From the NCBI RefSeq assembly GCF_006345805.1, contig NC_043002.1, positions 99,448,001-99,512,000 of the forward strand: a stretch of DNA of 64,000 nucleotides. The letters run 5' to 3'. Every line of letters begins with the position of its first letter. The stretch's first letter is position 1. This DNA is from Octopus sinensis. Lineage: Eukaryota. This document shows, piece by piece, positions 3,345 to 28,962 of the stretch. The notes below the pieces were generated by a model, which saw nothing but the letters and a program-made list of their open reading frames with translations, had not been told where the DNA came from and made no database searches. The position numbers and the translations under genes were made by a program.

Positions 3345-4015
3345 AATTTAAATGAGGGTGAGAAATTAGATATCAATTTAATTAACATCGATTTCACACC
3401 AGAGGTCTAGCATATCAGAAAACTGAAGGTTCAGTAAAATTGTATTATATACATATTAGAGGGAAACCACTATGTGGACATCCTTATGCTAGAAATAGAT
3501 CCGCTAAGGTCTTACCACTAAGAAATGTTCTCAAGAAAAATTTAGCAAAACAACCAAAACGTAATCGAGTAGGACAAAAGAAAAAGCTATAAAAATATGG
3601 ATTATTCGCATACATGTTTCTCTGTTAACATATTACGTAATTTTACTTACATAAATGTCCGTAAATCATCGGTGCGACCGTCCAGATGAATATAATTTGC
3701 TGGACTGCATATAGGACGTCCTCAAAAAGTCAGACTAGTAAACAGTTCTACCCATTACACTCGTGGTTACTATTTCAAATGTCCTCGTTTTAAATTTAAA
3801 TTTAAATTAATACGTTCTCTAACCTGCAAAGGCCACTGCAGTAAAGTATTATCTGCAGCATCAGTTTTTCCGGTAATTTAGGGCGCCGAAACGAGGACAT
3901 TTGACATAGTAACCACGAGTGTAACGAGTAGAACTATTTACAAATCTGACTTTGTGTGGACGTCCTAGTATGCAGTCCTGCCAATTATATTCATCTGGAC
4001 GGTTGCACCGATGAT
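3345..4015 (-). mobile_element. Penelope-like/retrozyme-type non-coding element with fold-back and hammerhead
   Basis: Begins at a (TA)n tract; imperfect inverted repeat of about 126 bp (3665-3790 vs 3889-4015); HHR motif at 3606-3677. Confidence 0.65.
3606..3677 (-). ncRNA. Type I hammerhead ribozyme motif (U4C core, long stem II)
   Basis: Minus strand reads TCGCA-CCGATGA-[TTT..ACAT.TTATGTAA-GTAAAA-TTACGTAA.ATGT..AGA]-GAA-ACA/TGT-A-TGCGA: 5-bp stem I, palindromic stem III, GUA cleavage triplet. Confidence 0.75.
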
Positions 4016-4607
4016 ATCTTGGACGCAGGAGTATAGCTAGGAAATTCTGGCTAATCTCCCTGTATCATTTGGCTAAACGACTCCTCAATACAGATTCCAT
4101 TAGAAAAGAAGAAACACTGTATTGAAAATTACTACTAGATTTTGAAAGGGTATTACATGGCGAGAAGTCATACGTTATGCAGAAAAAAACCATTGACAGG
4201 TTGAAGAATTTCTGCATTCTTTAAACAAAAATTGTTCTCTAATCACTATAGATAAAGATAATCCGCCTATAGTAAATAATATACAGAAGGATACTAATAA
4301 ACATAATTCAAAAGAAACCATAATATCATATGATTTAGTAACTAGAAGATAACTAAATGATAGTGCATAAAGAAGTGGGTGGAAAAATTGCCATGACAAA
4401 TAAAGAATAATTAGAAAGATTGAAGTAATTAAAATGAGTAGGAAAGATTTCTGGAAATCTAATTATATATGCTATTACTATTAAGGCATTCGTCGTGAAC
4501 GCAAAATGGACTTACAAACTCGAGGTATGCTAATGGTATATTTGCAGGGGATTAATTTTTAAAATAATTAAATCGTAACATAAGTTAAATCTTCTTGTTC
4601 AAAACAT

Positions 4608-4660
4608 TAGACTCTGACGAAAGAATAATCAACGATTATTCGAGGCATAGGTTGTATCTA
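4608..4660 (+). ncRNA. Degenerate hammerhead motif
   Basis: TAGA-CT-CTGACGA-AA-GAATAATC-AAC-GATTATTC-GAGG(for GAAA)-CA..TGT-A-TCTA; perfect 8-bp stem II, but the GAAA core is mutated. Confidence 0.5.
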
Positions 4661-5054
4661 GCCTTCCCTACATTATAAGGTAGAGCACTAGGTGAATATT
4701 GACCATTTGTTATCGTATTTCATGTTTTTATATATATCAACAATCCAAAGCGAACGGCGTAGAATACATTTTATGTTTCCGTGCATAAATTTTCCAGGTA
4801 TTAATGAATTAACCAAAGTAATTATCCGTCTTTAAATACATATAAAAATAAATTTTCTTTTCTTGCTTCGGTACTCATTGACGCATTTAGTTACATCATT
4901 ATTTTTTTCTTTTACAATCATATAAACACGACAGTTGTTGATGACAAGTGGGAATGTTCGATGTAAACATTTGATATCAGTTAAAATATAGATCTTCTGA
5001 CACATCCTATCATATAGAGGTATAATCTGTTTTTCTTCACGCACATAGTGTTAT

Positions 5055-5285
5055 ATACGTATATGTATATGTATATGTATATGTATATGTATATATATAT
5101 ATGTATATATATATATATATATATATAGTGTATATATATATATATATATATATATATATATTATATATATATATATATTTATATGTATACATATATACAT
5201 ATATACATACATAGTTGCAGTAGTTACAGTTGAAGATGATCATTTGGCGAAAAACACACGCATAATATATATATATATATATATG
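5055..5285. repeat. Compound (TA)n/(TATATG)n microsatellite
   Basis: Directly visible. Confidence 0.95.
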
Positions 5286-6135
5286 CCATGTCATGCATGT
5301 GCATTCATTCAGTAATCAACCTGGAAATACATCATCAGATGCAATTTTATAACTGAGCATCAACAGGAAAAGAGCCAAAAAAGAGAGAAAGTCAATGAAA
5401 TCGACAAACACACATAGACTTAATAAGATTCTGCTTTTAGAAGTTACTTTTCAATGTTTCTAATAAAAATAAATGAGTATTTTGAAATTCTCTCTTCAGA
5501 TGTCAATGAAATAGTGTAAATGCCAATTATTTCATGTTCTTCATTATAAATAACATTCTCTATAAACTATGCTAATGATATTTTATTTGGCATACGTCCT
5601 AATAAACGAAGTTGTTTTCTGTTCACTTATATTAAAAAAGTATTTTCTGGTTTCAAACTGTTTGAGATCAGACATTATAGGCCAATGCCTTGAAAGGTTT
5701 TAATCAGATTATATAAAGAAACTAGTGGCTAGCTTGGTACATATCAAGAGACTTTTTTTCTTATATAACGAATTGCTAAGTCTGAATTAACCGTAAGTGT
5801 TACATAAATATTACTCATATTTATATTTGATTTACTGAACTTAACTTATATAAATGCCGTATACAAAACCTTATCTATCCATTTTATCTATCAGTAATTA
5901 TTTTCTGTTTGAATGTGTATATATATATATATATATATATATATATATATATATATATAGAGAGAGAGAGAGAGAGATGTGTGTGTGTATGTATGTATGT
6001 GTATACCTATATATATATATATATATGCCTGTAACCATTTCATTAAAATTACGTCTTCTGTTTCATTTACAAAGGCTTAGTTGGTACATCCTTTTAATTT
6101 TTCGTCATTTGGATACTGAAAATATAACATCGGCT

Positions 6136-26711: not shown

Positions 26712-27050
26712 CACAAGTGTCTTCTGCTATAGCCCCGGGCCGACCAATGCCTTGTGAGTGGAATTGGTAGACGGAAACTGAAAGAAGCCTGTCGTATATA
26801 TGTATATTCATAAATATATGTATGTGTGTGTATGTTTGTATGTCTGTGTTTGTCCCCCTATCATTGCTTGACAACCAATGCTGGTGTGTTTATGTCCCCG
26901 TCACTTAGCGGTTCGGCAACAGATACCGATAGAATAAGTACTGGGCTTACAAAGAATAAGTCCTGGGGTCGATTTGCTCGACTAAAGGCGGTGCTCCAGC
27001 ATGGCCGCAGTGAAATGACTAAAACAAGTAAAAAAGTAAAAGAGTAAAAG
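26712..27050 (+). mobile_element. SINE family 2, 5'-truncated copy
   Basis: High identity to the reverse complement of 36290-36690. Confidence 0.9.
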
Positions 27051-27809
27051 AGGGTTACTTGCGGAAGCTGATTAAAAAAAAAAACTGCTGTCTTGTATTT
27101 CATTTAATTATCTTAAGTTAATTAAGTATATTTTACAGTCACTTGAAGCCGAAAATCGTTTACCTGATGTTGAGTCTAATTTATGGGTATTTTAATTTAT
27201 ATTTAAGTGCTTTGTGTCACTTCCAACTTTTCGTCATTTTACGTATTTCATTGAATAAACACTCTGAATCACATTAACGCCGCTTTAAATTTTTCCTTAA
27301 CCTAACCAATTCACAGTTTTCCATTTCTAATTGATTCATAACTTAAAAAAAAACAGCCTTGTGTCCGCTTCCGACCTTTTCAAGAACAGCCTATCATAGT
27401 GTTAGCTTTCCTGAATCATCTAACTTTTTTAGAAAATAATTAGTTACATTGATTCATTTATTTAACAGTAGATAATCAATAGCCGTTTCCTATAAACATT
27501 TTAATGTATCCATTCTTGCTCTTATTTTACTGTTGCCTACACTATATGTATACATGGAAAAGCGGAAGGACGTTTAATTAACTTTTTTGCTGAATTGTAT
27601 CATAAACAAAAGAGACAACAAATTTATCAAGATTCTTCTCTCCTCTCATTCTTCTCTTTTTCTTCTCTCTGTACCCTATCCTTTCTGTCTGTCTATTTGT
27701 CTGTCTCTCTGTCTCCCTCTCTCTCTCTCCCTATATATATATATATTATATATATATATTATATATATATATATAATATATATATATATATAATATATAT
27801 ATATATATG

Positions 27810-28015
27810 CATGCGTGTGTACCGTTGGCGATTTTGTTTCCTCTGTCTTCTCTTCTCTGGATCTTTCCTTCTCCTATGTTTCCGACGAAGAGCTCCGCTC
27901 GAAACGTTAAACCCTCCTTCTTTCCTTCTTTCCTGAGCGTCCAATAATACTATATTTGTTCCACGTCCTCGCGCTGTTGTGTTTTCTCTTTGTGTTTTCA
28001 TGTTTGGATTAACTA
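27810..28015 (+). mobile_element. HHR element family A (about 205 bp) between (TA)n tracts
   Basis: Homologous to 31690-31893 (-), 52870-53065 (-) and 63360-63470 (+). Confidence 0.85.
27878..27912 (+). ncRNA. Minimal type I hammerhead motif (family A, U4C)
   Basis: GTTT-CCGACGA-A-GAGC-TCC-GCTC-GAA-ACGT-T-AAAC; loopless palindromic stem III. Confidence 0.75.
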
Positions 28016-28042
28016 TATATATATATATATATATATATATAT

Positions 28043-28962
28043 ATGCAATAAAAATGGTAAATAATTTTCCTGTGGTTTTTCATGTAACCAACAATTATTT
28101 ACCGGTAAATTTCGGTATGTAAATACGACAAATTAATTGTCAGGACCTTTGTAAGGTTCAGTATATAGTAAAGAAAAAATAAGATGGCTAGCAGCAGGCT
28201 GTTTCGCCTCATACCGAAGGAATTAGAAATGGCAGTCAAAGACCGTTTTTTCCATTTTCTATAAGTGGAGATTCCAAAAACGAAGGCCCTTACGGCTAAC
28301 ATACACAAAACCGGAGTGGCAAATACACGAAATCAGTCACTTACCGTTAATAGCGAACACGTGTTTCTGGATCGCAAACATAGAAAAAATTAGTTTGAAT
28401 TCCGTCATCGGCGCTATATTCGATAGCTTTACCAAATGCCAGCAGCCCTCACTTCTGACCCAGCGACATCAGATAGTGGGGGGAAGAGCGCAGATGTTAA
28501 AACTAAGTAACGACTGGGAACGTAAATTTTCCCTCCAAAATCCTGCCATGCGCGCTTTCTGGGTAATCGTAATGGAATGAGGAATCCACATGGTAATGCA
28601 ATAAAAATGGTAAATAATTTTCCTGTGGTTTTTCATGTAACCAACAATTATTTACCGGTAAATTTCGGTATGTAAATACGACAAATTAATTGTCAGGACC
28701 TTTGTAAGGTTCAGTATATAGTAAAGAAAAAATAAGATGGCTAGCAGCAGGCTGTTTCGCCTCATACCGAAGGAATTAGAAATGGCAGTCAAAGACCGTT
28801 TTTTCCATTTTCTATAAGTGGAGGTTCCAAAAACGAAGGCCCTTACGGCTCACATACACAAAACCGGAGTGGAAAAAACGGTCTTTGACTGCCATTTCTA
28901 ATTCCTTCGGTATGAGGCGAAACAGCCTGCTGCTAGCCATCTTATTTTTTCTTTACTATATA
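28043..28962 (-). mobile_element. Retrozyme/Penelope-like element: 1.5 copies of a 553-bp monomer plus inverted tail, in (TA)n
   Basis: 28043-28319 repeats at 28596-28872 (2 differences seen); 28870-28962 is the reverse complement of about 28715-28808; HHR at 28350-28417. Confidence 0.85.
28350..28417 (-). ncRNA. Type I hammerhead ribozyme motif (U4C, extended stem II)
   Basis: Minus: ATAGCG-CCGATGA-C-GGA..CAAAC-(loop)-GTTTG..TCC-A-GAA-ACAC/GTGT-T-CGCTAT; perfect 6-bp stem I and 8-nt palindromic stem III. Confidence 0.8.

Follow-up and report, generated by a model that had tools for sequence, protein, structure and literature searches.

Hammerhead Motifs with a C4 Core

The 64,000-nucleotide stretch of the Octopus sinensis genome analysed here, hereafter the window (NCBI RefSeq assembly GCF_006345805.1, contig NC_043002.1, positions 99,448,001 to 99,512,000 of the forward strand), is AT-rich and packed with microsatellites. 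It contains 13 hammerhead-shaped loci, counted as eight families (A to H, of which A to D are defined by self-comparison), and at five of these loci the core box reads CCGANGA in place of the canonical CUGANGA, position 4 of the ribozyme being C instead of U (U4C, or C4). A sequence-only reading of the window had reported the five sites as a recurrent variant in four unrelated families. All five heptamers are present, those at 3666-3672, 9495-9501 and 28405-28411 on the minus strand only, and the structure scan calls each of them as a hammerhead. The tally of 13 includes four motifs that did not pass the strict scan and were recognised by eye: F, G and the family A copies 52996 and 63409.

Each of the five sites fits a type I hammerhead: stem I has 4-6 bp, the GAAA box is present, stem III is palindromic and cleavage is expected at a U-H site. 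Stem I is the open stem, and the core box is followed in turn by stem II, GAAA, stem III and UH. Apart from position 4, the core bases (C3, G5, A6, G8, A9, G12, A13, A14, A15.1-U16.1, and a base other than G at N17) are retained in all six complete C4 motifs. The five CCGANGA hammerhead calls compare with none in 30 block-wise dinucleotide shuffles, whereas the heptamer by itself shows hardly any enrichment (12 occurrences against a shuffle mean of 8.1), and the signal therefore lies in the architecture. When one core mismatch was allowed, nine hits were obtained: six with U4C, one with A6U, one with G8C and one intact; U4C hits were absent from 40 shuffles. Six of the eight single-deviation motifs are thus U4C, or five of seven loci once the palindrome pair described below is collapsed. 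The corresponding binomial P is 3e-5 at 0.07 per substitution, or 3e-4 when counted as four of six families, values that precede correction for the post hoc choice of site and should be multiplied by about 10. The five U4C sites are a real, non-random feature of the window. The structure scan rejected further raw CCGANGA sites at 50968, 51314, 61792, 36426 and 24166, as well as a site at 55773. Folded as monomers, nine motifs had z-scores between -1.4 and +2.2, with no notably stable case, as would be expected of dimer-type motifs; these folds were not used as evidence.

The single family D locus (3672) is a motif at 3606..3677 on the minus strand, with its C4 core at 3672-3666, a 45-nt stem II, the palindrome ACAUGU as stem III and predicted cleavage after 3611. 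It overlaps an inverted repeat at 3665..4015, whose arms (about 3665-3790 and 3889-4015) are identical at 114 of 125 positions. The right arm holds a second C4 core at 4008-4014 on the plus strand, and homology stops one base past it. We rejected the alternative of a DNA-transposon end in which the heptamer occurs by chance, as the left arm runs into a complete motif. Family B comprises locus 9501 and the head-to-head pair 18859/18883. The former is a motif at 9467..9506 (minus strand, CCGACGA core) in an element at about 9369-9506 that adjoins (TA)n. The latter is an insertion at 18788..19021 that has (TA)n on either side; of its two arms, only the right one bears a tail, of ~70 nt. Its direct arm carries a motif at 18879..18916 on the plus strand (CCGATGA core, 18883-18889), and its inverted arm a complete motif at 18827..18862 on the minus strand (CCGATGA core, 18853-18859), which the sequence-only reading had not listed.

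Family C (28411) is represented by a motif at 28350..28417 on the minus strand, with a CCGATGA core at 28405-28411, a 37-nt stem II with a C.A closing mismatch, and stem III ACACGUGU. The surrounding element (28043..28962, minus strand) is a partial tandem of the form a-b-a with a 553-nt unit, again between (TA)n tracts. It lies directly beside a family A copy, and a GGTAAGT splice-donor-like string occurs a few bases past its ribozyme. That family A copy (27882) is a minimal motif at 27878..27912 on the plus strand, with a CCGACGA core at 27882-27888, an extra A after A9 and stem III ACGU, in an element at about 27809-28013 with (TA)n tracts on both sides. The other members of family A carry U4: the nearest relative of 27882 at 31793..31827 on the minus strand (31823), two decayed copies at 52967..52999 (minus strand; 52996, stem II broken and G17) and 63405..63439 (plus strand; 63409, U16.1 lost), and a distant A-like copy at 21672..21709 (plus strand; 21677), which combines U4 with A6U and has compensatory changes in stem I.

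The earlier description of stems as otherwise intact goes a little too far: the C.A mismatch of 28411 lies at the base of stem II, and in 3672 that base is unpaired in the minimum-energy fold. Flank comparison among the four families (A, B, C and D) gives nothing above the shuffled level, in agreement with unrelated families, although C and D amount to one insertion each.

Four further motifs served for comparison. Motif E (38348..38433, minus strand) has a long stem II and a canonical U4 core, and motif F (6951..6991, minus strand) has a U4 core and a B-like stem III. Motif G (32163..32204, minus strand) is hammerhead-like, with a U4 core and a weak stem II, and the hammerhead-like motif H (8391..8474, plus strand) has a long stem II, U4 and G8C, and is probably inactive. 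Motif F lies inside a short palindrome (6966-7033) that holds this U4 motif and a decayed partner. The motifs at 3606-3677, 8391-8474, 28350-28417 and 38348-38433 have a common design, a stem II of 37-59 nt with a perfect stem III palindrome of 6-8 nt; the base of stem II is mismatched in two of the four, and descriptors with short spacers would overlook such motifs.

Inheritance of C4 within Families

That both family B loci carry C4 is borne out, in three of three copies. Loci 9501 and 18883 are 88% identical, yet both retain C4. The four differences within the 38-nt ribozyme (at N7, in the stem II loop, in stem III at its unpaired centre, and at a stem I pair that is C-G in one copy and U-G in the other) are all structure-neutral (P 0.005-0.014), which suggests that two source elements, both carrying C4, diverged under constraint on the fold. 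In family D, C4 is present in both arms. These sequence comparisons place C4 already in the source element of B and of D. The same is probably true of C, whose element appears young: the repeats at 28043-28326 and 28596-28879 differ by 4 mismatches in 284, and the inverted piece at 28870-28962 is identical at 93 of 93 positions, making a later mutation at that one site unlikely. For C and D, the evidence extends to a C4 template having been copied once. The earlier suggestion that C4 is a tolerated variant fits such inheritance from source elements in B, D and probably C.

Family A is mixed, as had been noted, with C4 in one of four close copies (one of five with the distant 21677). The accompanying proposal that C4 is the ancestral state, U4 arising by CpG decay of CCG to CTG, fails in this family. 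The C4 copy 27882 is sister to the U4 copy 31823 (190/206 identical), and the more distant copies are U4. Other CpGs in the family are decayed in only 4 of 45 site-copies, a count that takes in 12 sites where two or more copies have CG and leaves aside both the test site itself and five columns in which a single copy has CG. The observed/expected ratio of CpG in the window is 0.83, and 5-methylcytosine (5mC) is reported to be nearly absent from octopus transposons (PMC9476566). Rates of change within the family are similar, at 10/183 for T>C and 9/122 for C>T. Four decays in five copies would have a P of about 1e-4 on a star tree, compared with about 0.22 for a single T>C, and on the observed grouping CpG decay requires two to three changes where a derived C4 requires one. 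From the sister grouping, the low CpG decay and the scarcity of 5mC, C4 in family A is, on these alignments, a recent derived change on one branch. On that branch (27809-28013), all five polarised changes, U4C included, are T>C on the ribozyme-sense strand, and the sister branch is mixed. Such a T>C-only branch, seen once, could reflect reverse transcriptase errors, adenosine-to-inosine (A-to-I) editing of an antisense strand, or GC-biased conversion.

Penelope-Like Context and C4 Hammerheads Elsewhere

Penelope-like elements have been described with inverted arms, a one-sided tail, partial tandems and microsatellite targets (PMC8557442), and a palindromic stem III is a mark of the dimer-type minimal hammerheads that they carry (PMC4209133). 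Both traits are seen here. Families B, C and D show inverted or partial-tandem arms, a one-sided tail and (TA)n targets, and in every C4 motif stem III is a palindrome through which two copies could pair, with self-duplex energies of -1.7 to -10.3 kcal/mol. A stem II closed by G10.1-C11.1, together with a single extra base after A9, is seen in A; stem II is closed by A-U without the insertion in B, by C.A or a flanked G-C in C, and is weakly paired in D. From the stem III palindromes and the form of the insertions, it is likely that the C4 motifs belong to remnants of Penelope-like retroelements, probably to their terminal repeats. No reverse transcriptase or GIY-YIG open reading frame (ORF) adjoining any motif was found within the window, and Pfam returned no match above cut-off in the 10 ORFs scanned of 90. 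With no such frame attached, we infer the Penelope-like origin, and the copies would be truncated or non-autonomous. Cleavage is predicted to occur in dimers formed through stem III. Dimer dependence, which had been proposed as a possible attribute of the variant, comes with the palindromic stem III, which U4 and C4 copies have in common, and not with C4.

The minimal type I hammerheads that Cervera and de la Pena (2014, PMC4209133) described in Penelope-like elements share with those of the window their topology, the short stem I and a palindromic stem III implying dimer cleavage, as well as the extra base after A9 (family A), dispersed truncated copies and opposite-strand pairs. The stem III of B and F also resembles a Hydra example in that survey. 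There are two differences. All 56 of the 56 representatives in its Figure S3 are U4, the descriptor having fixed the core boxes, and U3-A8 is the sole core variant seen in the part of the survey covered; furthermore, stem II is much longer (37-59 nt) in C, D, E and H of the window. The animal retrozymes without long terminal repeats (non-LTR retrozymes; bioRxiv 10.64898/2026.07.22.740005) are non-coding units of a few hundred nucleotides with one type I hammerhead and a proposed Penelope-like derivation, and the 553-nt unit of family C is of similar size. Unlike them, family C has ~1.5 units and one ribozyme rather than two ribozymes in tandem, and no tandem array covering the motifs was found in the window.

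The substitution itself is not new chemistry, since U4C is already known as a natural variant. A viroid hammerhead with U4C has much lower activity in vitro but is still infectious (Ambros and Flores 1998, as cited in PMC3088659; see also PMC4075628). It is the same natural core substitution, although in the viroid it is a single variant of an RNA pathogen, and in the window it recurs across genomic retroelement families of one animal. A CYGANGA descriptor has likewise been used for viromes (PMC13481778). No published report of family-level C4 in animal Penelope-like elements, or of octopus hammerheads, was found in the searched literature, which excludes most subscription papers. We also considered whether Naiad elements might appear to lack hammerheads because they use C4. 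Partial searches of the PMC8557442 supplement do not support this: a family B string gave no hits and a family A string one unrelated hit, none of 11 ccgatga places was hammerhead-like, and two of 17 ccgaaga places were viewed, in a search to which matches spanning line breaks were invisible.

A prokaryotic baseline was obtained by scanning bacterial and archaeal genomes (14 of 64 parts) with a pattern in which position 4 could be either U or C. The scan gave 130 matches at no fewer than 126 loci, and 98 of the matches passed a check of stems I and III: 93 with U4 and five with C4 (four unique). The 32 that failed, 15 U4 and 17 C4, resemble chance matches, under a check that did not model type II hammerheads. 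The five C4 hammerheads comprise four of type III (L033, L089, L119 and L120) and one of type I (L062), all with intact stems. The records are labelled Saccharibacteria, Paceibacterota, Gammaproteobacteria and Paenibacillus, and L089 and L120, from two genomes, are identical around the motif. When five of the prokaryotic loci (four C4, one U4) were submitted to Rfam, two C4 loci matched Hammerhead_3 with E values of 5e-8 and 3e-7, below the gathering score. These hammerheads have the same CCGANGA core and intact stems as those of the octopus, but differ in their full stem III, and so are monomeric. C4 accounts for about 5% of the prokaryotic sample and 38% of the window loci (5/98 against 5/13, Fisher p 0.002), or for 4/93 unique prokaryotic hammerheads and 3/8 window families (p 0.01), in sets that differ in ribozyme type and ascertainment.

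Several other repeats occur in the window. Broken retroelement-like reading frames lie at 55689-57136 on the plus strand, one piece of which matches two Octopus proteins, among three hits, at 68-73% identity; we take this stretch to resemble the C-terminal part of an R2/R4-type non-LTR element, and Pfam gave no match above cut-off. An abundant dispersed repeat of ~170 nt resembling a short interspersed nuclear element, its copies 70-89% alike and often paired, is found at 9615-10038, 13490-13894, 15831-15965, 52110-52470 and 54593-55168. A direct repeat of 146 nt (29536-29681 and 29785-29930) has 96.6% identity between copies 249 nt apart, and a short palindrome occupies 19224-19288. None of these three received a hammerhead call. 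Finally, 10491-10940 has the appearance of a small DNA transposon: a 36-nt inverted repeat delimits it, and TAACCC-like runs occur inside.

Origin and Maintenance of the U4C Change

We consider it likely, with a probability of about 0.6, that U4C arose several times in active Penelope-like source elements and was copied onward as a tolerated, slower-cutting change. U4 contacts the A6-N7 phosphate (PMC3088659), a contact that C at this position likely weakens, and U4C is predicted to slow self-cleavage without abolishing it. Published viroid and phage work puts the change among the mild core changes; among 50 plaques of phage MS2 selected to escape a hammerhead, no U4 change was recorded (PMC4075628). 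In an anole Penelope-like element, cleavage needs protein and is dispensable for insertion in vitro, the main template being uncut RNA (PMC11167929). Should the octopus elements likewise be reverse-transcribed mainly from uncut RNA, a partly active ribozyme would cost little. Harsher core changes would be purged from source lineages, and the mild U4C could be fixed repeatedly by drift under weak purifying selection, as dimer-type ribozymes would need little cleavage.

Several observations weigh against this account. Focused Rfam searches of 27840-28460 and 18795-18990 gave no hammerhead match at E values up to 10. For the whole window, there is no hammerhead among the 150 of 180 matches listed. 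The matches listed in the focused and whole-window searches are microRNA-type hairpins, all under gathering scores. In a pairwise mutational scan, all single mutants of the CUGA turn are reported to have low activity (PMC9901934). Only family B offers two independent loci, C and D being single insertions, and the palindrome at 18788-18954 folds as one long hairpin (-126.8 kcal/mol), in which both ribozymes would be buried if transcribed through. Family A copies outside the window were sought through out-of-gene translations, in the frame where C4 or U4 gives Arg or Gln, and none was found; a family A DNA pattern likewise matched nothing among bacterial and archaeal genomes. Moreover, the window was flagged for the C4 pattern itself, and the frequency is probably inflated.

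Other histories of the change are much less probable. If all sources were U4 and the C4 copies arose by independent neutral mutation in dead elements after insertion, a single T>C in five copies would suffice for family A alone, but the same change would be needed in two B loci, in both D arms and in the C element, which is young, whereas deviations elsewhere in the core occur once each. Conversion between arms could cover D and the B palindrome, but not 9501 against 18883, and such a history is very improbable. Equally remote is an ancestral C4 in family A with the U4 copies produced by decay: methylated C does decay in the direction CCG to CTG, and 27882 does have the better stem I pair (G-C, against G-U or a mismatch in three others), but the CpG counts, the grouping of the copies and the near absence of 5mC described above all run contrary to it. 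A single ancient U4C event from which B, C and D all descend, their flanks by now too different to be recognised as related, is slightly less implausible, given that Penelope-like terminal repeats evolve fast (PMC4209133) and that C and D share both the long-stem-II design and a 10-nt downstream string. Kinship through this shared 10-mer was rejected, however, as the alignment of the C and D flanks is not above shuffles (p 0.68). The stem III of B resembles that of U4 motif F, and the likeness of C and D is to the U4 motifs E and H, a pattern that argues for separate origins, and the change in family A is in any case independent.

Two further explanations concern the forces involved rather than the number of events. 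A sense-strand T-to-C bias, arising from rU:dG errors of reverse transcriptase, A-to-I editing of antisense arms or GC-biased conversion, could have supplied U4C with little selection. Heavy A-to-I editing is a feature of cephalopods, and reverse transcriptase has its own error spectrum. The elements form long inverted repeats, and the five of five T>C changes on the 27882 branch have a chance of (10/36)^5, or about 0.002. Nevertheless, this is a single branch, spotted post hoc; the B and D pairs, which cannot be polarised, show no such skew, and bias alone leaves the intact U16.1 and stems of the C4 copies unexplained. As the whole explanation it is unlikely; as a supply term it is compatible with repeated origin and tolerance in source elements. 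Positive selection of C4, through slower cleavage that spares the full-length template for reverse transcription or lets inserted copies cut fewer host transcripts, seems to us just as unlikely. It would accord with the excess of C4 over the prokaryotic sample, with its occurrence among motifs of either stem II length, short in A and B and long in C and D, both designs also having U4 representatives, and with the dominance of uncut RNA as insertion template in vitro. Yet relaxed constraint also predicts enrichment, the comparison set is of another ribozyme type and the window was chosen post hoc, no second-site change covaries with C4, and five of the eight families are mainly U4.

A bolder possibility, which we regard as doubtful, is that much of the octopus complement of Penelope-like families has independently switched to CCGANGA, fed by a T-to-C bias, for example through A-to-I editing of the inverted-repeat transcripts that the elements themselves produce, and kept because slower cleavage favours retrotransposition. 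If true, such a switch would constitute a genome-scale class of ribozymes that CUGANGA searches cannot see, and would test in nature the use of the ribozyme to the element. The role of the hammerhead in Penelope-like elements is itself puzzling, as the motif is conserved and yet cleavage is dispensable for insertion in vitro. Fold-constrained families that carry a weakening core change would provide matched C4/U4 pairs from one genome, through which this role becomes testable. Surveys that fix CUGANGA (PMC4209133, PMC8557442) would miss 5 of the 13 loci in this window, and counts of Penelope-like ribozymes, together with claims of their absence, may need to be rerun with CYGANGA.

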